Assembly: GCA_044892525.1 (NCBI GenBank)
Contig: CM097885.1
Coordinates: 27,468,001 to 27,532,000 of the forward strand
Source of the DNA: Schmidtea polychroa
Lineage: Eukaryota
Direction: 5' to 3'
Length of the DNA stretch: 64,000 bases
In this document: positions 4,935 to 50,193 of the stretch, in pieces
Numbering within the stretch: the first letter of the stretch is position 1
Layout of the letters: each line of letters starts with the position of its first letter
The notes under the pieces: generated by a model
What the model saw: only the letters and a program-made list of their open reading frames with translations
Told to the model about the DNA's origin: nothing
The model's database searches: none
Translations under genes and position numbers: made by a program

Positions 4935-5825
4935 GGATGAGGCGAATCTCTTCCTTTGCTGTCATTAAATAATCTTCTTGCAATAACTTTAAGCGATACT
5001 GTAGGTATTCTTCTCTCTGGTTCTCATGTCTCGTATCGTCCTCTATACCGCTCATTTTCATTCTTGTCTTCATTTACAATTGGTATAAACCGACCATTAC
5101 CAGGTCTATTCCTCTCATGATTAATCTCTCGGTGTTCATCGTGTTGATGTGCAGTTGTCTTCACAATTGTTCTTTGGTCTCGTCTACCCTCGAATTTACC
5201 ATTTTTCATCACTGATGCGTAGGAGTCTCTTCTTATGGCATCAATATTGAATTTATTGCCATTCGTCATCTCGATCTTCTCCTGAATTTTTGCCATATCC
5301 CTGGCAGCTTCAAAACTTGTCACTTTCCCTGATAAGAATATTTCTTTTACTCTATCGTCTTTCGCTCTGTTTGACATAATGTCTCGAATAATCTGTTCAT
5401 CAGACATTCCAGAGCTAAATACACTTTTAACTAAACTTCTTACTCGTATTTCGAAGACTTGGAATCTTTCATCTCTCTCTTGCTGAATTTGAGCTAGTTC
5501 CACAATCTTGTTAGTAATGGTTTTTCTTACTGTAAAAGTTTCTATAAACCACTCTTTTGCCATTTCATCGGTCATCTTCGCTATTTTCGCCGCTTCCCAT
5601 AACATCGATGCCGCATCTGTCAACAAAAGATCCAATGCGTCTACTAGACTTTGATCTTCTATTCTCAGCCATTCCATAATATCCTTTAGCCAAAGTTCGG
5701 CTTCAGATCCAACTTTTCCGTCAAACTTTCTTACATTAAAATTTAACATCTCACGTGCTTGTTTTGACAAGGAATCTAACATATTCTTAGTTCCTTTCTT
5801 TTTTCCTATCGCATTGATTTCCTTG

Positions 5826-5836
5826 GCGTGGTCGCC
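5826..5836 (-). promoter_or_regulatory. Primer-binding site of Gypsy element 1, probably tRNA-Arg
   Basis: TGGCGACCACG directly after the 5' LTR, complementary to a ...CGTGGTCG-CCA tRNA 3' end (tRNA identity from memory). Confidence 0.7.
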
Positions 5837-5960
5837 AGTTATGACGTCTTCAACTTCTAAATTCATAAAATCAATAAAACAATAATAAATGCAGTTAAAC
5901 TATATTTTCCAAAAACACGCTAAAAACCATATTATTAAAACAAAACAACTTTCCATAACT
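5837..5960 (-). repeat. 5' LTR of Gypsy element 1
   Basis: Identical to 692-815; adjacent to the PBS. Confidence 0.95.
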
Positions 5961-7202
5961 TATACAACAGTAGAATGAGCCACTTTGAATGACTTCGCCG
6001 ACGAGGGAGTATTGGAACACAGTTCAAACAATAAACCTGCTCGCCAGCGAAACCTTTCTCTGAGGCTAACGAAAATGAAAAAACATAAGCGAATTACAAT
6101 AATTCAGCTTAAATAAGGTTATAATTAAATCATGCGCCATGACACGAATAATTAGATAATAATTTTGAATTGGTAAAACAACAAAATTTGTTTTCATCCC
6201 CAATTTTTGATAAAAATTAAAATTAAAGATCCGAGTGTTATAGATGGTATAAGACAACCACAGGCAGAATACGAATTTCAGGACCTAATTTTTTTGGTTA
6301 TTGAATGATGTTGTGATAAAAGTATTACTAAGAAATTTCCTTTTAATCTTGATTTAGTTTGAAGTTATATGGTAATAAGAATTTAATCCCAAATTACTAT
6401 TTGAAATTTTCGTTATTAATTTACTGTTTAACTTACGACACGAAACTTATTTACAATTTGACTACAACTAATTATTCGACCTACCATTTTACGACCTAGC
6501 CGAACGAGTATTTATAAAAGATGAAGCGTTGAGCTAAGAGACAAAATTGAAATAACCATTATCGTTAACTATACTTATCTAATAACAGAATGTCTCAATC
6601 AAGCTGTCACGACGAGGAAGAATCATACCGACAGACTATTACTCGGCTCCGAACCAGATACATTGGGTTCAAGATCCATGACTGGAACTGAGGTCTGGAT
6701 CTGGATAATTATGGTTCAGTCATACGGAGTGGCCCCGAGCCCGATGCCCCGGCGTTGGTGAAAGTAGAACCGAAGAACAATCTGTTACAGGAGGCCCGCG
6801 ACCGAGCGGCCATGGAATTGGAGGCAGCCCAAGCGCGGCTGAGGTTTATACACGAGAGGTTTATACACGACACCCTCAAAGATCAGTGTGAGGAGTTAAA
6901 ATTAAAATACTAAATTAAATTAGTTCATGATTAAAATTTGTAAAATTTTAATTGAAACTTAAATTATTTTAAGATATTAAAATTGAAATGATAATTGAAA
7001 TTTTAAAATAAAATAATTTTTAATAAAATTGAAATTCAAGTATGAATGCGATGGTATGTTGATATTTGGTTGAAATTAAAATTTAGAAAATGTCCCAAGA
7101 ATATTTGTTTATATAATCAGATTTAATGAAATATAATTTTGGATTTAATAGTCTTAGTAATTTATTTTGATGACAGAAGAATTAAATGTTATAGCTTCTA
7201 AC

Positions 7203-8288
7203 ATGGCGACCATTCCAACGGATCTGCTTATTGGAAGATTACTTCCAGAAAAATTCCACAGAGGAGGTGACCTCGAATTATTTATCAAAGAATGTCAGAG
7301 GTTCTTTGAAATAACGAAGACACCAGTAAAGACCCAAATGGTACTAGTTATTACACTTCTGGACAGGACTTTGATTGATGAATATGAAACCGCAGAAGGT
7401 AAAACCGTTGAACAGAAATTAAGAGCAGCTTTTCATCGACCAACGTCATTGATTGATGACTTAAGAGAAGCCTTGAACTACGAGCAAGGTAACGAATCAG
7501 CGGAAATATTTATAGAGAAAATATCAAAAATGACTAAAAAATTGGCCTCACACACTTGGAATGAGGAAGAAATTCAGAAATGTTTATTGACACATTGTGT
7601 AAAAGATAAAGAAGTCAGGAAAGAAATCGAAATGAAAGATCTCAAAACGGCGGAACAAATTAAAGAAACTATAAAGAAGATAGAAAAAGTTAACAAGGTT
7701 ATTGAACAAGTAAACACGGTGAGATCAATACGACCTACAACTGGGGGAAGAACTTATAGAGATGTAGTACAAGTTGGAGCCACGAAGAGAAAAATCAACG
7801 AATGGAAACCAGAGACAAGAATTAAAGTGATAGAATGCTGGACGTGTCAAAAACCGGGACACAGTAGCAGAGAATGTAATATAAAAAGAAGATTTCAATG
7901 TTATGCATGTGGTGTTGAAGGTCACATACGAAGAGAATGCCCAACAATCAAATGTCATAGATGCAATGCACGAGGACACAAAGAAAGAGAGTGCTACACA
8001 AATATGGAAAGACGAAATCAAGGAAGAGATCGAGACCAAAGGAAGATGTCAGGAGGAAGAATTCAAAGAAATACCTATCAACAAAGGGAAGATATGTATC
8101 AATCAAGGAACGTACATCAAAGACAATGGGGAAACCAACAATATAACAGAAAAGATATTGCAGCTATCGAGTCTGATGATGAGATGATGAATACAAAACA
8201 GTCAAGCCAGCCAGACGAGTATAACAGGGAGAATGACCCAAACGAGCACGCTCCGTCAAACGGGACATTGATCGGAGCAATTTACTAA
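7203..8288 (+). CDS. gag: Gypsy Gag with three CCHC zinc knuckles
   Basis: Open frame; CWTCQKPGHSSREC, CYACGVEGHIRREC, CHRCNARGHKEREC; first ATG at the LTR/PBS junction is 7203. Confidence 0.9.
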   Translation: MATIPTDLLIGRLLPEKFHRGGDLELFIKECQRFFEITKTPVKTQMVLVITLLDRTLIDEYETAEGKTVEQKLRAAFHRPTSLIDDLREALNYEQGNESAEIFIEKISKMTKKLASHTWNEEEIQKCLLTHCVKDKEVRKEIEMKDLKTAEQIKETIKKIEKVNKVIEQVNTVRSIRPTTGGRTYRDVVQVGATKRKINEWKPETRIKVIECWTCQKPGHSSRECNIKRRFQCYACGVEGHIRRECPTIKCHRCNARGHKERECYTNMERRNQGRDRDQRKMSGGRIQRNTYQQREDMYQSRNVHQRQWGNQQYNRKDIAAIESDDEMMNTKQSSQPDEYNRENDPNEHAPSNGTLIGAIY

Positions 8289-8311
8289 GTAATATTGATT
8301 TCAACCAAAGA

Positions 8312-11300
8312 ATGAATGCTAACGGTATGTGTAATTTAAGTATGTATGATGATTGTATGATTGATAAAGATTGTAGTGTTTTTGAACGTGATATTAATAA
8401 TAATAGTAGTGTAGAAATCAAAAAGTCGAATGATAAGGAAATTCAGAAAAAATTTAAAGAGGAGTGTAAAGTAAATGAATTAGTAAAACACGAGGAAAGA
8501 ACTATAGAGAAAATTTACAAATTCCTCAAGAAAAATGGAGACGTGTGTATTAATGAAATTGTAGAAGATACTAGAGAGCAGAATATTTTGTCAGTAGAAG
8601 AACAAAAAGGTCCGGTGATAACATATAATATAATGCAAGGTAGACCGAGTACAACACTGGATATCCAAGGGCGGAAAGTAGATTGTTTATTGGATACAGG
8701 AGCGCGAATTAATGTGATGGCTAAATCTGTAATTGATCGATTAGAAAATATCGAAATATTAGAAACAAGGGAATCGCTAAGATGTGCAAACAACAGTAGA
8801 TTAGAAACTATGGGTAAAATAAACATCAATGTTAAAATGGGCAGTTATTGAAAGAAATGTAACATTCATTATAGTAAAGAATTTAATACCAGAAATTATT
8901 GGAGGAGTAGAACTACAAAGGTTATTTGGTATAGAATTGAAATGTATACTAGAAGAACATGAAAAACGTAGTGATTTCATTTGCGAAATAGAAGCTAGAT
9001 TTGGGCAGATTATAACAGATGAAGAAAGATTACGTCATGCCATCGACGTTTTAAAGGTTACCGGAAATAAGAGACTGTTAGAAATATTTCAGGCAAACAA
9101 GAATGTTTTTATGGCAGATAAATGGGACATTGGGTGTACCAATCTGATAAAACATAAGATCATCACGAAAGGAGAGCCAATAATGATTAAACCGAGACGT
9201 CAGCCAATAAATTTGGAAGACAAGATTGAGGAAGCAATAAAAAATCTAGAAAACAACGGAATAATTAGGAAGTGTAATTCACCGTGGAACACACCTTTAG
9301 TTTGTGTATGGAAGAAAGAGATAAAAGACATCAGGCTTTGTCTAGACTTCAGACAATTAAACAAGATAACAGAAAGACAAGCATTTCCAATGCCAAATGT
9401 AGATGAAATTTTAGACATCCTACACGGATCCAGATATTTTAGCTCAATCGACTTAGGAAATGCTTATTACCAAGTGAAGTTAGATAAAGAATCTCAAGAG
9501 AAAACAGCATTCTCAACAAAAGAAGGACAGTTCTGTTTTAACAGGATGCCGTTCGGTATTGCAGCGGCACCAGGAACATTTCAAGAATTAATGACGAAAG
9601 TATTGAAAGATTTGTGGAAAGATGGAGTGATGGTATATTTAGACGACATCCTAATATTCACAAAGACAGAAGAAGACCATTATAACATATTTGAAAAAGT
9701 CCTAGGGAAGATCGCAACAGCAGGACTAAGATTGAACCCCGAAAAATGTCAAATATTTAGAAAAGAAGTGAAGTTTCTGGGACACATAATAAATAAAGAC
9801 GGCATACAAACAGATAATACTAAGATAGAAGCAATACAATCATTTCAAAAGCCAAAATGTGTAAAGAATCTGAGGAGCTTTCTGGGTATCTGTAACTATT
9901 ATCGACGGTTCATAAAAGACTATGCAAAGAAGGCAAGAGCACTAGAAAGCATATGCGGAAAAAACAATGAGAAAATAAGATGGACAGAGATGTGTGAAAA
10001 GGCTTTCGGGGAAATGAAAGAAGCATTGATAACCGCCCCAGTATTGGTATTTCCAGATTTCAGAAAAGAATTTATATTAGACACAGACGCGAGCTTCGAT
10101 ACTATTGGAGCAGTTCTTTCGCAAAAGGATGAAAAAGGACATGAACATGTCATTGCATATGGTTCACATGCGATGAGCAGCCACGAAAAAGGATACTGCA
10201 TTACCAGAAAAGAATTATTGGCAATATACTATTTTTGTAAACATTTCAACCATTACTTATATGGTAAGAGATTCGTACTGAGAACGGACCATAAAGCTAT
10301 TACGTTTATGGTAACAACGAAGAAACCAATAACTGCTCAATTCCAGACATGGATCAACTATTTAAGCAGCCTGGATATTAAAATGGAATACAGGAAAGGA
10401 ACAAGCCATACAAACGCGGATATGCTATCCAGGAAAACATGCGGAACATGTGTACAGTGTATGATGGAACACGAAGACCCAAAAACCGGCAAAATTAAAA
10501 CCAGAATATTAACAGTAACAGCAGAAGGCGGATATAACAAGTGGCAAAATGACAATATGGAGGTCCAAGAAATAAAGAATAAGTTAGAAAATAAAGATTG
10601 TAAGTTCATAATGGAAAACAACACGGTACTAACTAAGCAAGGTAAAATATGGATACCGTCAGATAATAGACAGAGGATGATAAAAGAAGTACACGTATTA
10701 CTGTGCCATGCAGGTGCATAGAAAGTAACGAAATATATCCAAAATAACTGCGACATGGAAAATTTAGCAACGGAAGTAAAAAAGGTAATTGAGAACTGCG
10801 AAAGATGTCAGAAAATGAAAACGATAACAACCAAGACAAAGGAGGAAACTCAAAGAATAAAGAGTACAGAACCATTCGAGAAGATATATATGGATATATG
10901 TGGGCCATTGAAAGAAACGTTCAACAAAAAGAAATATATTTGCGGAATCATTGACCACTATAGTAAATACATCTCATTAACGGCCATAAACAAGCAAGAC
11001 GAAAAAACAATTAGTGAGACGTTATTAAATAAATGGATATTAAAGTTTGGAGCTCCAAAAGAACTTCATGTAGATTGTGGGAAGAACTTTGAAGCAAGAA
11101 GTATAAAAGAACTAGCAAAGGCAGCTGGCATTGAATTAATTTTCTCAAGCCCATATCACCATAACACGAATGGTATTATTGAAAGACAATTCAGAACAAT
11201 CAGAGAGTATATTAACGCGTCATTGAATGAAGGAGGAAGGAAAAACTGGGCTGATATAGTGCCAGAAATAGAATATACTTTAAATGCAACAGTTCAAAAA

Positions 11301-11657
11301 ACAACGGGAGTAAGCCCAGCAGAGATTATATTTGGGAGGAAAATCGACAGAATGAAATGGTACTCGAATAAAGAAATAAATAGAGAAGATATGGAAAAGA
11401 GAATAGAGGATAAAACACTAAAACCAAAAATAAGCAAAACAGTGAGAGATTTTGAAATGGAAGATTTGGTTTTGATCAAACAAGAAATTCGAAATAAAGA
11501 CGATGCAAGGTGGGAAGGGCCGTACAAAGTGATAAAGAAAATACATGAACGGAGCTACTTACTTAAAGATCAAAATGGGAAGATGGTAGTCAGAAATGTT
11601 GAGAAGATCAAACATTTTAAAAAAGGGGGATGTGAGGAGTTAAAATTAAAATACTAA
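8312..11657 (+). pseudogene. pol: Gypsy pol (PR-RT-RH-INT) with one frameshift and one nonsense codon
   Basis: LLDTGA protease; frameshift near 8830-8850; YLDD RT; LDTDAS RNase H; TAG at 10719-10721 inside the integrase HHCC region; DDE core (MDICG, VDCG, IER) and EGPY in 10755..11657. Confidence 0.92.
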
Positions 11658-12265
11658 ATTAAATTAGTTCATGATTAAAATTTGTAAAATTTTAATTGAA
11701 ACTTAAATTATTTTAAGATATTAAAATTGAAATGATAATTGAAATTTTAAAATAAAATAATTTTTATTAAAATTGAAATTCAAGTATGAATGCGATGGTA
11801 TGTTGATATTTGGTTGAAATTAAAATTTAGAAAATGTCCCAAGAATATTTGTTTATATAATCAGATTTAATGAAATATAATTTTGGATTTAATAGTCTTA
11901 GTAATTTATTTTGATGACAGAAGAATTAAATGTTATAGCTTCTAACAATCAGATTCGCCCATTACCCGTGGAACTGGCCGAGATCTACCCACCGGCACAA
12001 TCGAGTAAGCCCAAACGCAAGCGGCTAGGGCGAAATACCCGAGAAAATCTGAAAAGAGTCTGGCTATCGGAACAAGAGAAGTTAAGAAAACCCGGGTCAA
12101 CTCCAGCATCCCGATCACGATTGAATACATGGATTCTAATGTAGTGATACACATACTGTCAAGACTTGTGATAATTGAATAAATAGTTTAAACAATCTAA
12201 TGTGCATGAGGGTGAGTCTTGTGATCGTTGAAGACAACGAAGGTGTTTGAGAAAACAATTTCGGT

Positions 12266-12496
12266 AAGGGACCTGAGTAAATCGGACACATGCCTTCTAA
12301 CGTAGTCCGTGGACCCATAGAGTACTCGACAATTATAGTGCCGTTAGCGCGCTCACTTTTTGCGAGTACTCACCCACTTGATACAGTACCAACGTTGATT
12401 ACTCAACGGGTATCAAACCGTAAATAATGTTGCATCTTGGGGTTACGCTGGTAACAGCACTGAAGGATAGATATTTGATCACCAGTAACCCACCAT
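12266..12496 (+). ncRNA. Candidate structured RNA, copy A (four hairpins)
   Basis: Conserved with 46287-46516; stems cggac/gtccg, gagtactcg/cgagtactc, ttgatac/gtatcaa enclosing cgttga/tcaacg, gggtta-ctggt/accag-taaccc; compensatory and G-U differences between copies. Confidence 0.55.
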
Positions 12497-13003
12497 CAGT
12501 TTTATCGACGTCATTGTGGATTTCCACTATTTTTACGTTTTCTTTTTATTTTCATTATTTTTTCGCATTTATTTAATTCAAAAGATGATTTGTACTCATT
12601 TGTATTATTTTTTTCATTTTTAATGATTTTACTTTATTTCTCATCCATTATCGTCGCTACGATGGATTAAAAATCTAATTTTTTGTTGTTTTTTGATATC
12701 CGGCGATACTTGGTGTTTATATATCAATATTTTTTTGTTATCATTTTTATTTGTGATTTTTGAATCATAAACGATAGTGACGTCCTCTATCGGTGCGACC
12801 GAACTAAGGTGAACCTTATTAGCATTGACCCGATGTACAATACTTATGTATGCATCTGTAATCAAGAGACCACGAGTATTTTCTCGATAAATTGGCAATT
12901 ATAAATCCAACATATCGTGTAAACCAAGTTATTATGTATTTAATAAATTTAAGTAAAATTAATCATTTTATAATGTAACATGAAATTTACAAATACTTAG
13001 AAG

Positions 13004-13164
13004 CAGTGGCGTAGATAGAGGACGGAATAACCCACAACGGGTAATACCCGACCGCAATTGAAAAATAATTAAATATCTTTAAAAATTTCATGAGCTGAAA
13101 CCGTTTTCAAGGGGTGACACCTTATATATCAGGTCGGGTGTCAACCATTTTAGCTACGCCACTG
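13004..13164. mobile_element. hAT MITE
   Basis: TIRs cagtggcgtag/ctacgccactg; 8-bp TSD cttagaag/cctagaag (7/8). Confidence 0.85.
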
Positions 13165-13621
13165 CCTAGAAGAATTGACTTTTATTTGTATATACTTTAA
13201 TTGGTACAAAAAATAATATTTTACTATGAAAGTTTAAAATATATAGAAGCTTTAAATGTTATTTATTTAAGATTTATTAACTGTGATTTTCAAAATAACA
13301 TCGAAATTATTTAAAATTTTAAGTAGGATTTATAAGTGTGCACAATAAAAATTATTAATTGTTTAATGGAAAATGTATTATTTATAACCACTTTCACCTT
13401 TTATAAATTTTTTCGATAGTGATAAAGCAATAAATTTTAAAATTTTATTAGATGTTTTTGATATACAATAAAATTTACCTTGTTTAACTGATTTCTAATT
13501 TGGTAAATTTTATAAAATATAATAATGGATTAAATATTTTTAATATATTTTAGATTTTATCAAAGAAATTTTTTGCAATATATTTTAAAATAAGCAAACG
13601 AAATCATTTTTTTAATTTTAG

Positions 13622-14857
13622 ATGAGTATTCTACAGTTTATTTGGGTTGGAGATTTAGATGAAACAAAAACGCAAAGGCTCCAGAACCCCCAGGCTTTGT
13701 CCTTTGATCGATGCCATCCCAAGAAAATGATAGTCAGACAAGACAAAAAAGAAACTCGTATTGGTAGAAAAAATTCTAAAATGCCCCCAGATTACGCATT
13801 AGAGAGTGCAGTTAGTAATCGTATGATCTCAAGGAACCATGTAACTATTGAAAGATTAAGTAAAGGAAATTATATGTTATATGATCACAGTTTAAACGGG
13901 ACATATGTAAATTTTGTTCGTGTAATTGGTGGAACTATTCTAAAGCATGAAGATGTCGTATGTTTCGGACATATTAATGGTGCAAATATTAAACCAGGTG
14001 AATCAGTTACACCTTTTGCTACTGATCTAAAATATCGAGTAGAAATAATTGATAAAGTAGGCACAATTCATGAAAAATCTGGTTCTGTTAGAAAAGGAGA
14101 GAACTATTCTCAATCAGAATCTAGTCAATATGAGGAAACAATTACCACAGAACAGAAGCAGAAAAAGGCTAAACATAAACCATTAAATGATAAAACTAAA
14201 AAAGTTAAAGTGGTTAAGCGTGAATCAGACGATTCAGATCAATCTTCAGATTCTTCAGAAAGTAGCAATAATAATCTAAGCAGTAGTTATAAAAAGCAAA
14301 AAAAACCAGTTGATTTGTCATCTGTGTCGAGTTCAGAAGATGACAGATTAAAAAGTTCTAGTAAAGATCGTCAATTTTCTAAAAAATCATTAGATAAACC
14401 GAAGAAACATTCCACAATGTCAGAGTCTCGTTTCAACGATTTATCGGCCCGTAAACGCAAATCCGGTAATGAAAATAACGCGAATCCAAAGCTTGGTTTC
14501 AAAAAGTCACATGAATCGAAAAGACCAATGAAAGGTGATGAAGATCGCCGGATGTTATCGTCTGGAGTTAAAGATCGAAAATTGCATTTAAATCAGAAAT
14601 CCCATTCGAAACCAAAATATTCGGATAATAATGGCAATGCAAATGCGAATAAATCTATGAAGCGAAATGTAAATTTAAATTCCAACTATGACTATGAAGA
14701 GTGTAGTGCTCGTCCATGTTTGCGGCCGGATGGTGAAACTTTAATCGATTGGATTATGTGTGATAAATGCACCCAATGGTTTCATCAATCATGCGTTGGA
14801 CTTGACGAGGCAGTGGAAGATGACGAGAGTTACTATTGTCCATATTGTGTTCATTAG
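13622..14857 (+). CDS. TCF19: TCF19-like protein: N-terminal FHA domain, S/K-rich linker, C-terminal PHD finger
   Basis: FHA motifs IGR, ISRNH, SLNGTYVN; PHD CSARPC...WIMCDKCTQWFHQSCVG...YYCPYC; intact 411-aa ORF. Symbol rests on domain architecture only. Confidence 0.8.
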   Translation: MSILQFIWVGDLDETKTQRLQNPQALSFDRCHPKKMIVRQDKKETRIGRKNSKMPPDYALESAVSNRMISRNHVTIERLSKGNYMLYDHSLNGTYVNFVRVIGGTILKHEDVVCFGHINGANIKPGESVTPFATDLKYRVEIIDKVGTIHEKSGSVRKGENYSQSESSQYEETITTEQKQKKAKHKPLNDKTKKVKVVKRESDDSDQSSDSSESSNNNLSSSYKKQKKPVDLSSVSSSEDDRLKSSSKDRQFSKKSLDKPKKHSTMSESRFNDLSARKRKSGNENNANPKLGFKKSHESKRPMKGDEDRRMLSSGVKDRKLHLNQKSHSKPKYSDNNGNANANKSMKRNVNLNSNYDYEECSARPCLRPDGETLIDWIMCDKCTQWFHQSCVGLDEAVEDDESYYCPYCVH

Positions 14858-18720: not shown

Positions 18721-19118
18721 CTATTATGATAAATAATTCCATATTAATGCATAAAATATCATAAATTTCCTAGAAAAACACCTGAAATTTAATTATTAAT
18801 ATATTTATAAATGATAAATTATAAATGATGACTAACAGTAATATTTAAGAACTTGAATAATTATATCTCATAATTATATAAAATCAAAATTCAAGTCCTA
18901 AAAATTACTTCAATTCAAAAATTTACCGTAAAATGATTTTTGAAAAATAGAATAAATGAAATTAAGTTAACATTGTCATATAATTGGTGACTCACCTCAG
19001 GTGGTGATCACACCAATGTATATTATAGACAATGTTAACTTTCGCGGTTAGGTGTATACAGCATCCAGTTTCCATTCTGAATTATGAAATACAACAGATA
19101 GTAAATAGACAAGTACAC

Positions 19119-19371
19119 CTGGCGAGCAGGTTTATTGTTTGAACTGTGTTCCAATACTCCCTCGTCGGCGAAGTCATTCAAAGTGGCTCATTCTACTGTT
19201 GTATAAGTTATGGAAAGTTGTTTTGTTTTAATAATATGGTTTTTAGCGTGTTTTTGGAAAATATAGTTTAACTGCATTTATTATTGTTTTATTGATTTTA
19301 TGAATCTAGAAGTTGAAAACGTCATAACTGGCGACCACGCCAAGGAAATCAATGCGATAGGAAAAAAGAAA
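19119..19371 (+). repeat. Inverted segmental copy of 5795-6047 (flank, TSD, LTR and PBS of Gypsy element 1)
   Basis: Reverse-complement match including host flank; LTR copy at 19206-19329 with two substitutions. Confidence 0.92.
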
Positions 19372-19427
19372 ACCATTCAAATTTCCATTTTAAGTCTTAA
19401 AAACAAAATTCAATGATTTATGACATT

Positions 19428-19467
<40 letters not shown>

Positions 19468-21255
19468 TATTACCACTTAAGTTATATTTTGTTGTTCTTT
19501 CTCTATCCCGACGTATATCATCATAATGTAATACGGCTAGTATGCTATATAAAAACAGAATTGATCATTGTTTTGAACATTAACTAAAGCCTGACAGTTT
19601 TTCAGGTAATTTGGCGTTTTAATGTAACTTGAACCTAAGTAAATATCTTGATTTATATATATATGTCTGATAATTTAGTTAAAATCATAGTAACTTCTAA
19701 TATTTTATGAATTCTCCACCCACTACTTTGTTGAGTGTATTTCTCCAACTTTTCTTTTAATTTTTCAATTCCATCATTAATAAATGAAGATGACATTGTA
19801 ATTGCTTTATTCGACAAACACCATTTTTTAATTTCACCATCCTCTTTGATAAACTCTGCACAAAGTCCAAATTGGATTTTTACTGTCCCCATTCGTTGAA
19901 TATGATCTTCTATTTCTTTGATGAGACAATCTGGAACAACAATGTCAGGAGAATTAATTGCAGTTACATCGCTTGTCAATTCAACACGAGAACCATTTAA
20001 GTCAGACTCCCGACGTGGACACAATTGTATGTTAGAGACTCCATTTCCGTAAAATATTGACTTTCGTTTTATGGTGCCAGAGATTTGTCTAACTATATTT
20101 ATAATTAATATTAAACAACTTAAATAACATAACTTGTAACATATTCTTTAATCTGCTTAGGATCGTATGATGTATTCATTTTCGATTGTACTATAAAAAA
20201 TTAATAATTGTTAATAGTAGAAGGAGCATTACTTTCAGCGATCATCCTGCTCTTCGTTTCTTCGAATCTTCTAAGATGGTGTCCGTGTTGTCGTACAAAC
20301 ATTAACCACCTACCTGGTGATATAATGAGACATTCCGGACATATGTAACCCGATAAGGTAGAGTCATTTATCTTGAAATATGATGATGTAACTGATTTAC
20401 AGTTCTCCACATCTTCATGACTTTCGGCAATACAAAATTTATATAAACTCATCCGTTCACTAAAAGAAAATAATCATTAATATTAGATAGAGAATAAAAA
20501 ATTATTCACTTATATAAGTTAAATTAAAAGTTTAAATGACACACATTTGAAAAGTTACTGCTTATATATTACACATGATTAAATTCTGACCAATCAAAAT
20601 CAAGGAAGGGGTAGGAAAAATAAATGCATTACGTTGCAGTATTTTAAAACTTCAATATATTTTAAAACACATTTTGACGCTAAAGTTTACTTATTTAACA
20701 TTTTCATAATAATTTAATAAAAATAATGTGATGAACCCACAAAGTAATATCATTTTTCATCAAATTGCAAAACAGTAATAACGTTTTCATAAATATTACA
20801 ACAAAGTAGTAACATATTTCAGAAAATTTCAACAAAGTTGTAAAATATTTATCAAATTGTAACTAAAATAATAAAATAATTGCAACAAAGTAATAAAATA
20901 ATGATGTTAATTGGGACAAATCAATACATTATTTCGAAGACGGACAACAAATTAAAAAGAATATTGTAATAAATTGTGAAGTCTTTCAGTAAATTACATC
21001 AAAGTAATAACATATTTTGGAAATATTTCACCAGATGTAAAATATTTAAGCAAATTGCTATAAGATTATAAAAATATTGCAACAAAGTAATAAAATAATA
21101 CAAAATTTTAAACACTAGATCAATCCATTTTATAGAAAATTAATTTTTATCTCTATAATATATGAATAAATATCCAAGGAAATTACGTGTAACAATGTAT
21201 ATTCAGAATTTAATTCTCTACAACATGGCGCAAATACAATTTCAGTTTGGTGCTT

Positions 21256-21720
21256 TGTGTAATGCACACATGTTTTTACAATAAATTTGTATTTTTTCGC
21301 GCGGTTAACGTTATTTTCTTGGATTTTTATTCATATAATATATAGATAAAATTTAATTTTCTATAAAATAGCTTAATTAAAAATTATGTATATTGTTTAG
21401 TGTGTAATACACACATTTTTTACAATAAATTTGTAATTTTCATACATTTAACCTAATTTTCTTAGGATTTTTTTCATATCATATATAAATAAAATTTAAT
21501 ATTCTATAAAAATAACTTGATTAAAATTTATGTATCTTGATTTCTGTGTAATACACACATGTTTTTACAATAAATTTGTATTTTTCATACATTTAACCTA
21601 ATTTCCTTGAAATTTTATTCATATAATATATAGATAAAATTTAATTTTCTATAAATTGGATTGGTTAAAAATTATGTATCTTGTTTTGTGTGTAATACAC
21701 ACATGTTTTTTAATTTTCTA
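21256..21720. repeat. ~145-bp tandem repeat, about 3 units
   Basis: Motif tgtgtaatacacacatgttttt recurs near 21256, 21401, 21545 and 21690. Confidence 0.85.
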
Positions 21721-22309
21721 TAAAATGGATTGATCTAGAGTTTAAAATGTTGTATTATTTTATTACTTTGTTGCAATATTTTTATAATCTTATAACAATT
21801 TGCTTAAATATTTTACATCTGGTGAAATATTTCCGAAATATGTTATTACTTTGTTGTAATTTACTGAAAGACTTCGCAATTTATTACAATATTCTTTTTA
21901 ATTTGTTGTCCGTCTTCGAAATAATGTATTGATTTGTCCCAATTAACATCATTATTTTATTACTTTGTTGCAATATTTTTATTATTTTAGTTACAATTTG
22001 ATAAATATTTTACAACTTTGTTGAAATTTTCTGAAATATGTTACTACTTTGTTGTAATATTTTCTAATCTTGTTACAATTTGCTTAAATATTTTACAACT
22101 GTTGAAAATTTATCTGAAATATGTTATTACTTTGTTACAATTTTTATGAAAATGTTATTACTGTCTTGCAATTTGATGAAAAATGATATTACTTTGTGGG
22201 TTCATCACATTATTTTTATTAAATTATTATGAAAATGTTAAATAAGTCAACTTTAGCGTCAAAATGTGTTTTAAAATATATTGAAGTTTTAAAATACTGC
22301 AACGTAATG

Positions 22310-22425
22310 CTTTTATTTTTCCTACCCCTTCCTTGATTTTGATTGGTCAGAATATATTTATTTTTCCTACCCCCTTCCTTGATTTTGATTGGTCAGAATT
22401 TAATCATGTGTAATATATAAGCAGT
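22310..22425 (+). promoter_or_regulatory. Putative Pol II promoter (duplicated ATTGG/CCAAT box and TATATAAG)
   Basis: ttttgattggtcaga occurs twice (local duplication), followed by tatataag upstream of the 83-aa ORF and PolB; mirrored at ~20560-20600. Confidence 0.4.
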
Positions 22426-22529
22426 AACTTTTCAAATGTGTGTCATTTAAACTTTTAATTTAACTTATATAAGTGAATAATTTTTTATTCTCTATCTAAT
22501 ATTAATGATTATTTTCTTTTAGTGAACGG

Positions 22530-22781
22530 ATGAGTTTATATAAATTTTGTATTGCCGAAAGTCATGAAGATGTGGAGAACTGTAAATCAGTTACATCATC
22601 ATATTTCAAGATAAATGACTCAACCTTATCGGGTTACATATGTCCGGAATGTCTCATTATATCACCAGGTAGGTGGTTAATGTTTGTACGACAACACGGA
22701 CACCATCTTAGAAGATTCGAAGAAACGAAGAGCAGGATGATCGCTAAAAGTAATGCTCCTTCTACTATTAACAATTATTAA
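22530..22781 (+). CDS. Small Cys/His-containing protein upstream of PolB, unknown function (mirror copy at 20201..20452)
   Basis: 83-aa ORF with YICPEC and HGHH, open in both arms. Confidence 0.45.
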   Translation: MSLYKFCIAESHEDVENCKSVTSSYFKINDSTLSGYICPECLIISPGRWLMFVRQHGHHLRRFEETKSRMIAKSNAPSTINNY

Positions 22782-22957
22782 TTTTTTATAGTACAATCGA
22801 AAATGAATACATCATACGATCCTAAGCAGATTAAAGAATATGTTACAAGTTATGTTATTTAAGTTGTTTAATATTAATTATAAATATAGTTAGACAAAAC
22901 TCTGGCACCATAAAACGAAAGTCAATATTTTACGGAAATGGAGACTCTAACATACAA

Positions 22958-25900
22958 TTGTGTCCACGTCGGGAGTCTGACTTAAATGATTCTCGTGTTG
23001 AATTAACAAGCGATGTATCTGCAATTAATTCTCCTGACATTGTTGTTCCAGATTGTCTCATCAAAGAAATAGAAGATCATATTCAACGAATGGGGACAGT
23101 AAAAATCCAATTTGGACTTTGTGCAGAGTTTATCAAAGAGGATGGTGAAATTAAAAAATGGTGTTTGTCGAATAAAGCAATTACAATGTCATCTTCATTT
23201 ATTAATGATGGAATTGAAAAATTAAAAGAAAAGTTGGAGAAATACACTCAACAAAGTAGTGGGTGGAGAATTCATAAAATATTTGAAGTTACTATGATTT
23301 TAACTAAATTATCAGACATAATACATGTATCTGGTAAGTTTATTTACATTATATATATATATATATATATAAATATAAACAAGATATTTACTTAGGTTCA
23401 AGTTACATTAAAACGCCAAATTACCTGAAAAACTGTCAGGCTTTAGTTAATGTTCAAAACAATGATCAATTCTGTTTTTTATATAGCATACTAGCCGTAT
23501 TACATTATGATGATATACGTCGGGATAGAGAAGGAACAACAAAATATAACTTAAGTGGTAATATATATGTATTTAGAGTTAAAATGGAAATCAGATTGGT
23601 TTCCAATGAAGTTGGTTAACATTTGCCAATTTGAAGCAATGAATCCAAATCTAGCGATCAATGTTCTCAAATATAATAAAGATCCAATTAAACAAAAAAC
23701 TAATGATATTTTCAAGAATCCGTTCGTTGACTTGGTATATAGAAGTACTTCGACGGGATCTCAGATATATCTCCTATTGATTGAAGAAGGTAATATTTCT
23801 TTTAATCATTAAAAATATTAACTAAATTTTAGAATTAAATTATCATTTTTTGGCTGTAACTAATCTCGATCGACTGCTGAATTACAGAGATAGAGTAGAA
23901 GGAGTCAGAATCCAATCACATTGGTGTCATACATGTCTTCATGGGTTTCAAAAACGTCCTGCTTTTGAAAGACATATAGGTCTTTGTAGGAAGAATGTGG
24001 AGCGTACGACTCTATACTCAATGCCAGAGAATAAATATATCGAATTTAAAGACTGGAGTAAAACTATAAAACAGCAGTTTGTTGTCTACGCGGACTTTGA
24101 ATCAATATTACCTCTAGACGACAAACACTTCCAAAAACATGAGCCGATTGCATCTGAATTTGTGCTTCTTCATCAAGGTTGTCCGATCCGAAATGAAACA
24201 TTTGTTGGGAAAAACTGTATCATTCAGTTCATATAAGCATTGGATGATATAGCTACAGACATAGTTTATCCGTGGTATAAAATTAATGGATCAAAGGAAA
24301 TGATGGAACTCACGTGGGAACAGCAGGAAGAATTCACGACTCAAACTCATTGCTACCTTTGTAAAAAGATTATCAATATACCTGTTCGAGATCATGATCA
24401 TTTTATTGGTCAATATCTGTAAGCAGCGTGTCAAGATTGTAATTTGGCTAGAATAATCAATCCGTCTTTACCTGTTGCAATTGGAAAATTCCCCGATTGG
24501 AATTTAATTGTTATTCCTCAATCAACAGATAAGTTTTTCACACTTACAGCGACATCGAAAAGCAGAAGAATTAGATTCATTGATTCTTTACAATTTTTAA
24601 ATAGCAGCTTGGCAAATTTATCAAAAAACTTGCCACGTCTTCCACTTACTTCAAAGATTTTCAATTCTCATCTAATAACTGGTAAAGGCATATTTCCTTA
24701 TGATATTGCTACGTCAATGGATGTTTTACAGTCAATAACAGAATTACCATCGATTTGGGAGGGAGTTAGTCAAGAAGATTATATACATGCAAATCAAATC
24801 TGGCGACAATACAACTGTGAGACACTGCTAGATTACATGCTCGTATATCTCAAGTTGGATGTTTTTCTGTTGGCCGATGTTTTTGAAGCTTTCAGAGAAA
24901 AACATTTGACGAAGATGGACTTGAGGCTCTATCGTTTGTTTCCATACCCGGATTAAGTTGGGCATCAGCTATTAAACAGTTACCTGAACCGGTAGAACTT
25001 ATTCAAGATCCAGAGCTTTACCGTTTATTTGAAGCTGGTATTCGTGGTGGAATGACATTTATCAACAAACATCATGTTGAAGCTGATGAATCAACACAAA
25101 TGTCAAACCTAGATGTTAATAATTTATATGGATGGGCGCTGTCGCAAAAACTTCCTGTTGGTGAATTTAGATGGATAAATGATCAGACTGAAATGAATGG
25201 TATTGTTGAAAGATGTGCAAATGGGGATGAGTTTGATTGAGATCGTGGATATGTTCTAGAGGTTGACATCGTCATTCCTGTTAGTATACAAGATAAGTTA
25301 GATGATTTACCTATAGTTCCTGAGCTTTGTTATCCACCTGGTAGTAAAGTTGAAAAGCTGTTGTTAACTCATGAGCCTAAGAAAAACTATGTAGTTAATG
25401 GTAGAGTTTTGACTGAATGGTTGAGTTATGGCGCAAAAGTCACAAAAGTTAATTGTGCTGTAGAATTCAAGCAAGTAGCTATTTTCAAAGGCTATATTTA
25501 TTACAATACTCAAATGAGAGCAGCTAGTACAGATTCATTTCAGCGAGATTATTATAAGTTAAAGAACAACAGTTTATACGGTAAAACCGTGGAAAACCTT
25601 AAGAAACGTATAAATTTGAGATTATGCAGCAAAAGCAAAAGATTGATAACTTATTGTAGTAATCCTATGTTTCGTCGTAGCATCAAGATTGCGGATGATC
25701 TCATTGCTGTTATACTTGATAAGGAAATGGTGTGTTTAGATAGACCAATGTATATTGGACAAACCGTACTTGATTTATCTAAACTTCGCATGTACCAGTT
25801 TCAATATAAAGAACTACAGAGTTATAGAGAAGAATTCAATTGTCAAATTAATATCGTAGCCGGTGACACAGATTCCTTCTTTTTAGAGTGTAAAAATGTT

Positions 25901-26389
25901 GATTTACGCTTACAACTGTATCCAAAAATGGTTGTCGATGGGCTCCTAGATACTTCAAATTATCCAGTGACTGATCCATTGTTCTCAGATAAAATTTGTT
26001 CGGTAATCGGGAAACTCAAGGATGAGAATAAAGGAAATCAATATAAAGAATGGGTGTTTCTTCGACCCAAGTGCTACTCACTCCAAGGCGATAAAAACAC
26101 TCTAAAAGCCAAAGGAATAAGACTTACAAACTCTAATCTTACACATGAAGCCTATAAAAAAGTGTATACTGATGGTGGAACAGTGAGCATCCCACAAAAA
26201 AGAATAGGAAGTGTCAATCATCAGTTGTATACTTTCATGACCGAAAAACGAGCTCTCCAATGTTTGGATGATAAAAGGTATTGGTACAATTGTAATGAAA
26301 GTTATGCCTACGGTCACTATAAGATTCGTCAAATGCATATTGCAACTGCTATGTCTAGAAATGAATGCAAATCGAAACAAGCACTTTAA
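22958..26389 (+). pseudogene. polB: Polinton/Maverick-type protein-primed family B DNA polymerase, intron-containing, decayed
   Basis: SSGW, GSSYI..P, zinc finger, VYADFES exonuclease, CYLC..RDHDH (endonuclease VII-like), FIDSLQF, KGIFPY, IRGG, LDVNNLYG, KLKNNSLYGKT, GDTDS, RPKCYS; GT-AG introns at 23334-23395, 23558-23576, 23790-23832; several stops and frameshifts. Confidence 0.92.
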
Positions 26390-29300: not shown

Positions 29301-30029
29301 TTTTAAGAAATATTTTTAGAACATTCGGAACCCGGTACATTTAGTCGTGACATCCTTAACAAAATAGTTGCATCTCGATTTAACTAAAAAGATTCTTTAA
29401 AAAAATTCTCGAAAGGCTTTTTGGTTCTCCCAGAAATTAAGAAAGTATAAAACCAATCGATAATTCTCAAAAATTCGGCTATGCCCGAATGTATTATGAA
29501 TTATCGTGGATTTTGATCGGTGAGTTATCGATATCTCAGCATACTCCCAGCACTATGCAAAGGGCTAATATTGATTTTATAGTGCAGAAAGTGGAATTTT
29601 TATAATTTCGGTTCCTCGCCCTACAAAATATAGATTCTTGAGATAAAGATATGTTGTTCTCCCCTTTGGCTTTGGCCTTTAATAACTCGTGTTTAAATTT
29701 GCAAATGGCATGAGGCTATCAAACAGAGGGAAAAACAGAATTGAAGGTAATAATGGATAATTATTTTATATAAAGAAATAAAAAAATTGAGATAGAGATT
29801 AAAAAACCCCACAAAAAGTCAAAGATGCCTGGACAAAATCAATAAATGCGCCCCGACTGCACTATATATATATATATATATATGCGATTGATACATGAGC
29901 ATAATCAGCTGATGATAATTGGATATGAATTATGGGCTAGTATAACTCTTGTTCCACTGACTTAGGGAGTAGCAGGAGGCAAATTTATGTTTATTGTCAG
30001 TTTTATAAATTAAATATGAAAATATTAGT

Positions 30030-30208
30030 TATAAATAAATAAAATAATTAAATAACAATTACCTATAATAATAATAATAAATAATAAAAATAATAACAAA
30101 TAAAAAATAATAATAATAAATAATAAATAATAATATTAATAGAAATAATAATAAATAATAATGATAAAAATTAAATAACAATTATAATAATAATTAATAA
30201 AAATAATA

Positions 30209-30253
<45 letters not shown>

Positions 30254-30990
30254 TAAAAATAAATAATAATAATAAAAAATAATAATAATAAATAAAAATA
30301 ATAATTAATAATAATAATAATAAATAATAAAAATAATAATAATAAAAATAAATAATAATAATAAAAAATAATAATAATAAATAAAATAATAATTATTAAT
30401 AATAATAAATAATAATAAATAATAAAAATAATTAAAAATAATAACAAATAAAAAATAATAATAATAAATAATAATAATTAATAGAAATAATAATGATAAA
30501 AATTAAATAACAATTATAATAATAATTAATAAAAATAATAAATAATAATAATAAATAATAAAAATAAATAATAATAATAAAAAATAATAATAATAAATAA
30601 AAATAATAATTAATAATAATAATAATAAATAATAAAAATAATAATAATAAAAATAAATAATAATAATAAAAAATAAAAATAATAAATAAAAATAATAATA
30701 ATAATAATAAATAATAAAAATAAATAATAATAATAAAAAATAATAATAATAATAATAAATAAAAATAATAATTAATAATAAATAAAAAACAATAATAATA
30801 ATAAATAATAAAAATAATTAAAAATAATAATAATAATAATAAAAACAAATAATAATAATAAATAAAATAACAATAATTATAATAATAATAATTAATCATA
30901 ATAAAAAATAATAAATTATAATAATAAATTATAATAATAAATAAAAATAATTAATAATAATTAAATAGTAATAAAATTGTCAATATTAAT
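30030..30990. repeat. Degenerate (AAT)n low-complexity satellite
   Basis: Almost only A/T, built of aat/aaat units. Confidence 0.95.

Positions 30991-33623: not shown

Positions 33624-33625
<2 letters not shown>

Positions 33626-33693
<68 letters not shown>
33626..33693. repeat. (ATT)n microsatellite
   Basis: Perfect att run. Confidence 0.95.
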
Positions 33694-43700: not shown

Positions 43701-45061
43701 TAAATAATTATTTCATAAAAATAAAATTATAAAACAAATTATTGATCTTGGGATTCCCCTATCTCTAAATTTAGTTCAGTGGCCCTATCTTCCAATAAAA
43801 GTGCGGAAACTCACTAAATTCTATTTTTAGTAACACCCCCCCCCCGGAAAACGACCTCTATATTACTAATGGGGGAATATATATGTATATATGGATAATA
43901 TAAGTGTGTGTGTGTGTGTGTGAAGATACAAGTATACATGCGTGATTCTGGATATATTCCCATAAATCTACCAAATAGCTGTCCGGATCTCAATGCGGTA
44001 TCATGACCACAACCCTTTGTGGTAATAGTATGAGGAGAAATAATTTACTGAAACAATTTATTAAAATAATTTACTAATTTATTAAAGTTATTAAATTTAT
44101 TTCAAACCCAAATCAAAGGAAGTCTAAATTTATTAATCTCTAAAATTCTGACAAAATTATCAAATCGAAGGACGAGGAGCTTGATGGTGAACTACGTTTG
44201 TTGATCCAGTCGCCCTGTATGTTTGCATCATGGTTTCTTCGAATCATATTCATGCCAAAGTCCTGTGGGCACAGGTGAGGAAATGTATCCCCTGGGGTGG
44301 GAGGGCCTCTGGGTGGTTCCTTCGGTTTTTTTTATTGGTTCAGCGATTTTAGTGTTGTTTTGATGTGATAATGTTGGATAGCCGACTATACTTCTTGTGT
44401 CTCTTATACGTAATCATTGTCAGGTAAATCCACCAGGACGATTAGTGGGTGGAACCAACCTTGGGATGACCGGGCCATCACACCTCATTGAATTGTGGTA
44501 AGCTTGATTGCTGAGCGAGTCTTCGAGTTTTCTCGTTGGTGCTGTCAGGCAGTCCTTGCTCAGGCTGGATGTCGTGGTAGGTTGTTGGTCAGTGGTGATT
44601 GTTGTGGGAGTGCGGCCGACTACTGATATTACTGAAATGTAATTAAAAAATTTACGATATCAACATTTAATATTTTCAGTTGTTTATCTTATCATAGCAA
44701 AATTAACCAAAAGTACAAATTGATTCAAAATTCATTATTTATCATTAATTATAATTATATCAACAAAACAACGAAAAAATTTAGATACTGTTAAATGACT
44801 ATAACAAAACAAAAAGTACTAAAAATCAAGGTTCCATGGCTTTATTCAAATTATTAGTTACCAAATTTTTTCTATTAGATAAAAATTTTTTTTGTCTTCT
44901 TAATTTAATTGATTGAAAATTATCGCCAAGTTAAATTCAATCTTCGTGTTAAAAGCACTTAACTTACTTACAGTAACTTATTATTTAGTTGAGATATTTT
45001 ATCATAACTTCAATTTGTAAGTCATTGGTTGGGAACAGGTTTTAACATTTGTACTGCAGAC

Positions 45062-46117
45062 ATGTCACAATCAAGCGACCACAGTGAAGAAGAGGACCAA
45101 CATATGATCACTCGACTCCGTACCCGGTACATTTGGTACCACATCCATCGGTGGAGTCAGGGACGGGATCTGGATAGCACTAATCGAGTTATCTGAAGTG
45201 GCCCCGAACCAGATGCCCCGGCGTGGGTGAAGATAGAACCGGCAAACAATGTACTCCAGGAGGCCCGTGATCAAGCGGCTGGTGCCGTAGAGGCCACCCA
45301 GGTGCGACTCAAGAAGATCGAGTTGCAAATCAGAGCAGAAAGGGAGGGAGTGCCCCTGGAGGAGCTAGAGGAGGCCGAAGCACCCCCACGAAAGAGAGGG
45401 AGGCCCCGCAAATGCCGATGGTGATCAAGGACTGACTCTTGACTTACTATAATCAACTCCTTTTCATTGTTTATATTGTGATGAATAATCAAAAACTGGT
45501 TGAGGATCATATTTTACTCCTTTTAATAAATTATCTTCTGAATAAATTGTCTATTTAATATCTAAAAGTATTGTTATGCATGATATTGATCTTATTATAT
45601 TGAATGAGTGGAATGCTGCAAGAAGGTAATCATTGTATTTTTTCTAGTGTTCAAACTATGTGAAAATCTACAAAGGGACAGAGAAGAAGCCCAAAAACAG
45701 GCCGAGGAGCTCCGCGTACGAGTGGACCAGCTCAAAGGGCGGTGCCGGAAACTCGAGGGCACCTGGTTTAGTCCCGAAACAATGAAGAAGAAAACAGCCC
45801 AGATCCTCCAGCTGCAAACACAGGCCGCCCAGGATCAAATGGAAATTCGTGCCCTAAAACTGCAGGTACGCGCGCTCGAAACCAAACGGAATGAACAGTT
45901 GGTGCAGGAGGCCGTGGCAAGACAAATACGGCCACTGGCCGTTGAACTCGCAACAATATATTCCCCGGCCGCTGAAAATAAGCCCAAAAGAAAACGGCTC
46001 GGACGGAATATTCGTGAAAAATTAAAGAAAGCTAGGCTGGCCGAATACGAGCGGCAACCAAATTCATCACAAGCGTCTACGACGGGGTTGGCCAGCTCTA
46101 CCAACAAGTCGATTTGA
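45062..46117 (+). pseudogene. Copy B of unknown coiled-coil protein gene with AT-hook and basic motif
   Basis: ATG 45062, one in-frame TGA (Arg codon in copy A), AT-hook PRKRGRPRK, AT-rich intron-like spacer, then coiled-coil segment and KPKRKRLGR; homologous to copy A. Confidence 0.65.
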
Positions 46118-46286
46118 ACTTCTTTCTGTCTTGTATATTTTGTAGTGTGTGTCGTATATTTTTGTAGCATCAAAATAAATTTTGTTAAAATAATTCATAT
46201 GTTGTAGTAGTAAAATAATTTCAACTATATTTTATGATTGCCTGAGAAATGGGAGTTTGTGCGTAAGGTTGGGAAAACAATTTTAA

Positions 46287-46516
46287 TAAGGGACCTGAGA
46301 AATTGGACATACACCTTTTAACGGTAGTCCGTGAACCCATAGAGTACTCGACAATTATAGTGCCTTAATGCACTCACTTTTTGCGAGTACTCAACCCTTG
46401 GTACAGTACCAACGTTGATTACTCAACGGGTACCAAGTGGAAACGTAATGTTGTATTCTGGGTTACACTGGTAACAGCATTAACTAACAAACCTTCAACC
46501 ACCAGTAACCCACCAT
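46287..46516 (+). ncRNA. Candidate structured RNA, copy B (four hairpins)
   Basis: Same stems as 12266-12496 with cttggtac/gtaccaag, agtgc/gcact and tggac/gtccg variants. Confidence 0.55.
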
Positions 46517-47088
46517 TACTATGAAGTCCGAATACAAAAGCGATGATAAATTGTGTGGATTTGTGCGATGTTTAACAGCACTCGCACATGTCCCAGTTGA
46601 TGATGATGGTGAATCATTCGACTTGCTAGCTAAACGGATGCATAAACACGAAAAAAGATGAACCGACCGTGGATCAAGAGTTCATGGATGAATCTTCCGT
46701 GAATGAAAAGTTTGCATGCCATTCTGGTTTACGTTGGAAACAGCATAAGGGATATAATGATGGTCATCTGTAACCCACCAATGATATATTGAGAATAGTG
46801 AAGGTATTGATAAATGACAAAGAATTCACATCCGACCATACATTCTCTGCGAACTAGTGACATCCAGATTTTTTTGAGTTAAATTAGATTTATTTTTTCT
46901 AAAATTATTTTATTTTAAGTACATACACACCCATGATTTGTTATTTTAAACCTTAGTTGTTAACATGAATTTAATTGATTATTTCAAACAATCAAATTAT
47001 TAAATAATTTTATTTTTATTTTATTGTGGCCTTTCATTAGCGATTTTAATAAGAATTTTTCATAATTCTTATTTAATTATTTTTTATT

Positions 47089-48842: not shown

Positions 48843-48889
48843 TTTATAAATATTTTTTTTATTGGATATATTAATTTTAATATATAAAA

Positions 48890-50176: not shown

Positions 50177-50193
50177 TATTTTAACATTTTAAA

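Follow-up and report, generated by a model that had tools for sequence, protein, structure and literature searches.

An abundant mobile unit of no known class in Schmidtea polychroa, with two new small proteins and a probable mark of ADAR editing

What kind of element leaves behind diverged and independently disabled copies of small coiled-coil genes, each copy followed by the same hairpin-rich block? Two such copies lie in a 64,000-nucleotide stretch of the Schmidtea polychroa genome (assembly GCA_044892525.1, contig CM097885.1, positions 27,468,001 to 27,532,000 of the forward strand), the whole of which we call the window: copy A around 6590-12144 and copy B within a unit at 43743-46515 (Table 1). 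The original prediction, made from the DNA letters, had taken them for a protein and RNA cassette of an unrecognised mobile element or endogenous virus. Our analysis indicates that they belong to a genuine and very abundant mobile unit of no known class, which encodes two new small proteins and bears a likely scar of ADAR editing. Members of the family share their ends and are present in high copy number, the open reading frames ORF1 and ORF2 were under purifying selection in the past, and copy B carries an A-to-G patch on one strand. We lean slightly toward the view that the unit spreads as RNA copied to DNA by a reverse transcriptase (RT) encoded elsewhere.

Part of the stretch is contained in six of 15 listed sequencing runs of one organism, none of them listed as RNA. 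Contigs of four runs (X1, X4, X5 and X7) were placed on 43740-47084 at 80% likeness, 1,809-1,902 of them in each of three runs and 26 in X7, which is possibly an RNA run. The summed contig depth, which is not a copy number, was 36,000-82,000 over the first 112 bases, up to 19,000-34,000 over the ORFs and 192,000-339,000 over the core of the block; it was below 600 past 46540 and 28-76 over the right flank at 46652-46875. In three of the four runs the left-end bin, at 36,000-82,000, was followed by a bin at 900-2,800. The limits of depth are sharp at about 43743 and 46515, giving a unit of 2,773 bases, and several contig joints skip internal parts of it, some with filler letters. The repeat family is very abundant and unclassified, and the two copies that had first been recognised are members of a very large family, as judged by contig depth. 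The earlier suggestion of an unrecognised mobile element agrees with the high copy number, the sharp common ends, the deletion derivatives and the lack of any match to a host gene or annotated transposable element in protein, Pfam and profile searches. The segment 46520-46870 was considered as part of the unit and ruled out by its near single-copy depth. Starting right at the unit end, 46 codons at 46517-46665 encode what we take to be a Mutator-type transposase likeness, with no Pfam match.

The reading frames of the two copies begin at ATG codons at 6590 and 45062, as the original prediction had it, with an acceptor-like AG one base before the start in copy A and two bases before it in copy B. 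Their coding parts have 49-57% GC, against 30% for the window. The premature stops (TGA at 6689 and 45194) fall at non-equivalent codons, each read through by the other copy; selenocysteine or TGA read-through was ruled out, as the two stops sit at different codons. Over 122 aligned codons the proteins are 67% identical, the differences are distributed 28/27/60 over codon positions 1/2/3, and pN/pS is 0.33 (bootstrap 0.24-0.45), which implies that the frames were formerly under purifying selection. The dN/dS comparison that had been proposed for these copies, made here as pN/pS, gave a ratio that is not neutral, in a family far larger than two copies. The downstream hairpin blocks, 83% alike over 252 bases (E 4e-63), are more alike than the genes.

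Copy A lacks everything from ORF1 codon 85 to the last 65 codons of ORF2. The deletion took out the AT-hook along with the spacer and the greater part of the coiled coil, left a 15-bp tandem duplication at 6841-6870 as its scar, and likely fused two genes that are kept separate in copy B. The Gypsy retrotransposon within copy A is a later insertion, with long terminal repeats (LTRs) 99.7% alike and a 5-bp target duplication; the reading frame of copy A continues across the empty site. Its gag zinc knuckles, RT and RNase H were recognised by Pfam; the unit itself is without RT.

The AT-hook, coiled coil and KPKRKRLGR motif of copy B had been listed together as features of one gene. All are present, the AT-hook below threshold (PF02178, 10.6 bits against a Pfam gathering cut-off of 17.4, E 0.59, with the RGRP core), but they do not lie in one frame and probably belong to two proteins. 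Between the AT-hook and coiled-coil parts are the ORF1 stop at 45422-45424 and about 220 AT-rich bases. The stop is followed 100 bases on by AATAAA (45525 and 45541), ORF2 has its own AATAAA at 46174, and the sole donor that ORF1 offers at its end does not match in phase the good acceptor at 45647, after which ORF2 begins in a frame open from 45608. Because of the stop, the separate AATAAA signals, the out-of-phase donor and the point where the alignment to the ORF2 homologue described below starts, copy B likely holds two genes rather than one. The 17-base stretch at 45609, together with a strong donor (45626) and the acceptor (45647), makes up a potential 22-base intron or a micro-exon. The intron (45626-45647), which is unusually short, may give ORF2 a start codon; alternatively, a micro-exon in the 45609 region may join ORF1 to ORF2 in phase. 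No GT-AG joint fitting the proposed introns occurs among the 15 of 30 contig joints listed.

A search of 1.84 billion representative sequences returned a single homologue of ORF2, P0005 (157 amino acids, 40% identity, E 6e-21), whose cluster consists of two ENA sequences without a name, from contigs 638 and 549 bases long. Its alignment begins where ORF2 follows the acceptor at 45647, which fits an exon start there. A profile search with ORF2 returned P0005 again and no further homologue, the DNA of P0005 had no match in metagenome contigs, and neither ORF1 nor ORF2 matched longer proteins (ORF1 was searched against longer proteins only). Both proteins are predicted to be mostly helical: AlphaFold gave long helices for ORF2 (predicted local distance difference test (pLDDT) 78, predicted template modelling score 0.34) and a model with pLDDT 65 for ORF1. 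Foldseek found no fold match to either model at E 0.001. The top ESM Atlas match for P0005, the chordate family 'zgc:113691' (0.95, 157 shared features), was rejected, as it was not repeated with P0001; its name was absent from the literature searched, and the other ESM Atlas matches were generic coiled coils. With one known relative, the ORF1 and ORF2 proteins form a family that is new and likely accessory in function.

The left half of the unit had been overlooked earlier, as had the A-to-G patch within it. The GC-rich stretch at 44143-44632 is probably an antisense gene, to judge from open stretches of 70 and 63 codons on the minus strand, an acceptor-like AG at the upstream edge and four minus-strand AATAAA signals behind it. 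Pfam had no match in the three minus frames of 44106-44632. One well-covered X1 contig skips 44330-44608, with 11 filler letters in its place, and a subfamily may thus be without most of the region hypermutated in copy B. Zero cover of 44300-44635 in X5 was not counted as a finding.

In the patch copy B has G where other copies have A, according to counts made on 40 of the 461 differences between B and the contigs, namely those listed. Inside the patch 21 of 24 listed differences are of this kind, with A in every covering contig, against 1 of 16 outside it (Fisher p 3e-7). In one contig 19 of 258 letters are not as in B; for 14 or more of them B has G and the contig A (p 4e-5), and the 14 sites all lie within 121 bases, where they account for 44% of the inferred former A's. 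Distant contigs, 81-82% alike to B (32 differences in 181 letters and 54 in 291), also carry A, so that G is the derived state in B's line. The patch sites show no codon-phase bias (6/3/5), and just 4 of 21 are preceded by C, so CpG decay is not the explanation. On the 5' side, G adjoins 1 of 21 patch sites as against 24 of 80 unchanged A's (p 0.02), and A or T adjoins 16 of the 21 (p 0.007). Across the family in X1, purine transitions number 176 and pyrimidine transitions 94 at equal base content, the patch included. An inverted partner of the patch is absent from the window, as would suit a patch that paired with an antisense transcript.

The patch is likely ADAR editing fixed in DNA. For an A-to-G patch that lies in a chromosome and is derived, limited to one strand and unselected, the simplest course of events is that double-stranded RNA was edited and then reverse-transcribed. 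Clusters of A-to-G changes are described as a hallmark of ADAR and clusters of G-to-A changes as a hallmark of APOBEC (PMC2873906, in excerpt). Across metazoans ADAR disfavours a 5' G, favours U or A, and edits sense-antisense pairs (PMC9989829, in excerpt); planarians have active A-to-I editing, with ADAR2 editing mRNA (PMC8797187, in excerpt). The literature search turned up no report of ADAR-edited genomic transposon copies.

The structured block at the 3' end of the unit folds better in copy B than all 200 shuffles (z -3.3) and more weakly in copy A (z -1.7, 10 of 200 shuffles as good). Copies A and B differ by one compensatory G-C/A-U pair, while U-A/U-G and C-G/U-G changes keep the pairing and the GNRA loop is kept in all three block copies despite sequence change. 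The last domain of each consists of a 7-bp stem around a hairpin with a GNRA loop, and ACCA comes next; the best fold gives the 7-bp stem in A, a stem one pair longer in B and a degenerate form in the third copy. Likeness stops 0-4 bases past ACCA at all three right ends in the window, and the chance of ACCA at a given place is 0.003, before allowing for the several features inspected. The compensatory pair, the G-U-tolerant changes and the loop, drawn from two to three sequences, make the proposed protein and RNA cassette plausible. ARAGORN found no tRNA gene, there being no full tRNA fold at the stem-ACCA end, and an Rfam scan of the window to E 1 found nothing like the block and no ribozyme, the only match being an unrelated AT-rich one to mir-753 at 18842-18904. 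DNA patterns of the block had no match in viral, metagenome or prokaryote collections. The block contains repeated GTAC/TTAC words. Its interpretation as the end of a minus-strand gene was ruled out by indels and the lack of codon-phase bias (11/11/16).

At its left end the unit starts with TG at 43743; copy A ends in TCA, with 8 of 10 letters complementary to the left end, and copy B ends in TTA. There are 45 such 8-of-10 matches in 128,000 positions, and the boundaries were picked after inspection. Alignment of the left end with the block is no better than that of shuffles (63 to 195 of 200 as good). One X7 contig goes on past the right end, where a 17-letter stretch matches the complement of the left end in 14 letters, the best match in the window; copy A shares the first four letters of this continuation, and the X7-type inverted repeat is absent from all three right ends in the window. 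The complementary letters can be a terminal inverted repeat (TIR), a pairing of the leader with the far end, a DIRS-like complementary region or an inverted neighbour.

If the unit does spread as RNA, the cycle would start from a full-length plus-strand transcript running from the left end to the block. Copy B keeps the non-coding ends and the AT-rich spacers, so this RNA was likely unspliced. The mRNA of the antisense gene would pair with it, and host ADAR would edit the paired stretch; since the plus strand is the edited one, the patch coincides with the putative antisense gene and no inverted partner was found in the window, the pairing strand was likely the antisense mRNA. The edited RNA would next be reverse-transcribed and inserted, which would fix the edits. 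The block would serve as a cis signal for priming or packaging, with the terminal stem and ACCA as a candidate handle for RT, and the ORF1 and ORF2 products would act as nuclear accessory proteins, likely regulating transcription or silencing of the element.

The RNA route could take three forms. The unit may be a solitary long LTR that belongs to a larger LTR retrotransposon and has the genes within it, a form that we offer tentatively and consider rather unlikely taken singly. Retroviral U3 regions contain ORFs, such as nef and sag. HTLV-1 (human T-cell leukaemia virus type 1) has the antisense gene hbz (PMC10186651, in excerpt). Burro/GYPSM1 of planarians and Ogre are long-LTR elements, and the length of our unit falls within the 1.9-6.5 kb of Ogre LTRs; the section on Burro LTRs in the same source mentions no ORFs inside them (PMC6431247, in excerpt). 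The TG start and the short imperfect inverted repeat with the end of copy A may correspond to those of solo or gene-bearing LTRs, and the structured 3' part, the acceptors before small accessory ORFs and the likely RNA phase are shared with gene-bearing LTRs. Unlike LTR elements, the unit was seen with neither a second LTR nor gag-pol, a primer site and a clear target duplication were likewise not seen, and the window contains no paired copies flanking gag-pol.

It is doubtful, as the next form would have it, that the whole RT-less unit is moved in trans. The RNA of the Mauriceville and Varkud retroplasmids has a 3' tRNA-like stem with CCA at which their own RT starts cDNA (bioRxiv 10.1101/792986, in excerpt), and the RNA of our unit, given its predicted end, would likewise finish with a tRNA-like stem and CCA. 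Retroplasmids, however, are circular, mitochondrial and equipped with an RT, whereas the unit is nuclear, has no RT and offers just a 7-bp stem and ACCA. A DIRS-like derivative is very improbable. DIRS-like tyrosine-recombinase retrotransposons have a complementary region (PMC7192593, in excerpt), to which the complement of the left end near the right end may correspond, together with an RNA intermediate and a possible trinucleotide on both flanks; in contrast to them, the unit has no gag, RT, RNase H, methyltransferase or recombinase, and the window lacks long inverted repeats of this kind. Pfam matched neither gag, RT/RNase H and methyltransferase nor tyrosine recombinase in ORF1, ORF2, the minus frames of 44106-44632 or the four frames of the right flank. 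Penelope-like elements and Terminons resemble the unit in having extra coiled-coil ORFs and a folded 3' end (PMC6431247, in excerpt). They differ in their hammerhead (Rfam gave none in the unit, and a core-motif scan gave 0 matches), their RT and their GIY-YIG endonuclease (no Pfam match in the unit frames), and no telomeric repeats were noticed at the ends. The Polinton/Maverick polymerase, integrase, ATPase and capsid are not in the unit, and the Polinton pieces of the window share no sequence with it. The unit did not clearly show the defining features of any family tried and is not assigned to one; it works most like the terminal unit of a retroelement that bears accessory genes.

A number of observations weigh against movement as RNA. 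No RT-bearing partner was seen, there is no poly(A) tail and no purine run of 11 or more before the left end, and the one contig going on past the right end has no tRNA primer site or TGG. The target duplication, examined in copy B alone as the left end of copy A is missing, is unconvincing (3 of 4 letters, or a 3-letter TTA in TTA-rich DNA). A full-length RNA would be prone to truncation at the plus-strand AATAAA signals within the unit, and the TIR in one contig and the common internal deletions with filler are as found in DNA transposons. Covariation in two to three block sequences is not above shuffles (243/500 and 500/500). As for the patch, its statistics cover the fraction of differences given above, B's G alleles come from the window assembly alone, with A in all X1 and X4 contigs at the listed sites, and the neighbour preference is modest, losing significance when neighbouring sites that changed are taken as G (p 0.29) or when the comparison is limited to the best-known span (p 0.09).

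The main rival, unlikely but serious, is a non-autonomous cut-and-paste TIR DNA transposon whose ends were kept by deletion derivatives and whose window copies lost the right repeat. Mutator-like Vandal and CACTA are groups in which non-autonomous TIR transposons have accessory genes, and the unit resembles them in the short inverted ends of one contig, the deletion series and the small DNA-binding and coiled-coil proteins. The X7 letters past the block (14 of 17), the deeper cover of both ends than of the middle, the several internal deletions, some with filler, along with the 15-bp duplication at that of copy A, and the acceptor-like AG and AATAAA of each gene all suit a TIR transposon, for which the GTAC/TTAC words could be protein-binding sites. 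Yet there is no transposase in or beside either copy by Pfam, as the original prediction had also noted, the inverted repeat is known from one contig, and three right ends in the window stop at nearly the same base without it. An ADAR-like patch, moreover, is not expected in Vandal or CACTA and requires an extra event, a rare accident such as conversion by edited cDNA or editing of the DNA strand in an RNA-DNA hybrid.

If the patch were instead an assembly or polishing artefact in a real repeat family, for example a Helitron-like or other DNA element, nothing would be left to show how it spreads, and we give this a poor chance. No contig shows B's G at the listed sites, and clustered mismatches of one type are known as an artefact in Sanger traces, although the reported clusters are G-to-A, the opposite change (PMC2873906, in excerpt). 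Against an artefact, the patch does not extend beyond one GC-rich stretch and fits the neighbour preference of ADAR, and the runs, which contain at most 46% of the words of the stretch, may simply be without this copy. Still less probable is an endogenous viral element, in which accessory genes and a terminal structure from an unknown virus were inserted repeatedly. RNA viruses typically show A-to-G patches, and the compact genes on both strands, the near-complementary ends in one contig and the ADAR-like patch would suit such an origin. This half of the original prediction nevertheless found no support: viral contigs gave no match by DNA pattern or protein, no predicted viral structure matched with E <0.001, there is no polymerase or capsid gene, the window's Polinton pieces have no sequence in common with the unit, and the copy number is that of a transposon. 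The least probable explanation is that the copies are pseudogenes from a multigene family of the host, one specific to the lineage and furnished with a conserved 3' element; the acceptors, polyadenylation signals and pN/pS of 0.33 would agree with this, but the non-coding ends, which are sharp and high-copy, the roughly tenfold deeper cover of the block than of the genes, the deletion derivatives and the setting among transposons do not.

The boldest form of the RNA reading, which we regard as quite improbable, is an undescribed class of RT-less animal retroelement: 2.8 kb, three genes, hundreds to thousands of copies, a tRNA-like stem-ACCA RNA tag read by a borrowed RT, and ADAR scars where the antisense gene pairs with genomic RNA. 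ADAR is thought to guard against repeat-derived double-stranded RNA, and its marks normally remain in RNA. If the reading is true, the family preserves in its DNA a fossil record of how ADAR acted on a transposon in germ-line cells. Strand-specific A-to-G patches in DNA copies would let ADAR attack be counted, dated and mapped from genome sequence, and would reveal an RNA stage in an element showing no RT. Should the unit prove an ordinary non-autonomous DNA transposon, it would be a new repeat family with clear limits and of modest interest. We found nothing on the element in the literature, and Repbase, Dfam and the planarian repeat library may already list the family as unclassified; PMC11410931, in excerpt, gives class-level repeat content only.

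Table 1. Coordinates, in window positions, of the unit, its two copies and associated features
Feature	Positions	Strand	Description
Unit left end (copy B)	43743..43851	+	starts TG, first base uncertain by 1-3; high-copy
GC-rich stretch, putative antisense gene	44143..44632	-	two open pieces; GC 47.5%
A-to-G patch	44176..44592	+	B has G, other copies A; ADAR-like hypermutation
ORF1, copy B	45062..45424	+	120 codons, TGA 45194; helix, VKIE motif, coiled coil, C-terminal AT-hook-like RGRP
ORF2, copy B	45648..46117	+	about 155 codons; long coiled coil and basic KPKRKRLGR
Block, copy B	46236..46515	+	three hairpin domains, the last a 7-bp stem with GNRA hairpin, then ACCA; deepest-covered part of family
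Third, degenerate copy of the last block domain	46720..46781	+	nhmmer E 1.2e-5; same ACCA end
Copy A, 5' part	6590..6886	+	first 85 codons of ORF1, TGA 6689, deletion scar, in-frame fusion to ORF2 end
Gypsy LTR retrotransposon	6887..11947	+	secondary insertion in copy A, outside the unit
Copy A, 3' part	11948..12144	+	ORF2 C-terminal part, including KPKRKRLGR; 40 codons at 70% identity
Block, copy A	12222..12498	+	ACCA at 12495, TCA at 12498

Several other elements surround the two copies. To the left of copy A is a minus-strand Gypsy (691-815, 5795-6047) with unequal LTRs, of which the 3' end has only 125 of 253 bases; a near-identical solo copy of its LTR lies at 19119-19371. To the right, a 185-bp stretch with 26-bp inverted ends (12992-13176) is probably a miniature inverted-repeat transposable element, and 13622-14857 is an uninterrupted ORF of 411 codons with FHA and PHD domains, either a host gene or a retrocopy. 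A 1.5-kb inverted repeat (92%; 19456-20900 and 22037-23575), with shorter repeats nested between its arms, sits at the front of a type B polymerase gene that extends to 26389, and 32484-33278 on the minus strand is an ORF with G-patch and double-stranded-RNA-binding domains. Beyond copy B, a Polinton/Maverick cluster (48573-60777) encodes a double-jelly-roll capsid, an integrase with a phospholipase A2-like domain, an A32-like ATPase and several unknown ORFs, and is interrupted at 56213-58123 by what is presumably a hAT-like transposase. The cluster is bracketed by a 594-bp direct repeat, 98.5% alike (47085-47678 and 60753-61342), the second copy of which cuts the start of a polymerase-like ORF; the pair is probably two insertions of another repeat.

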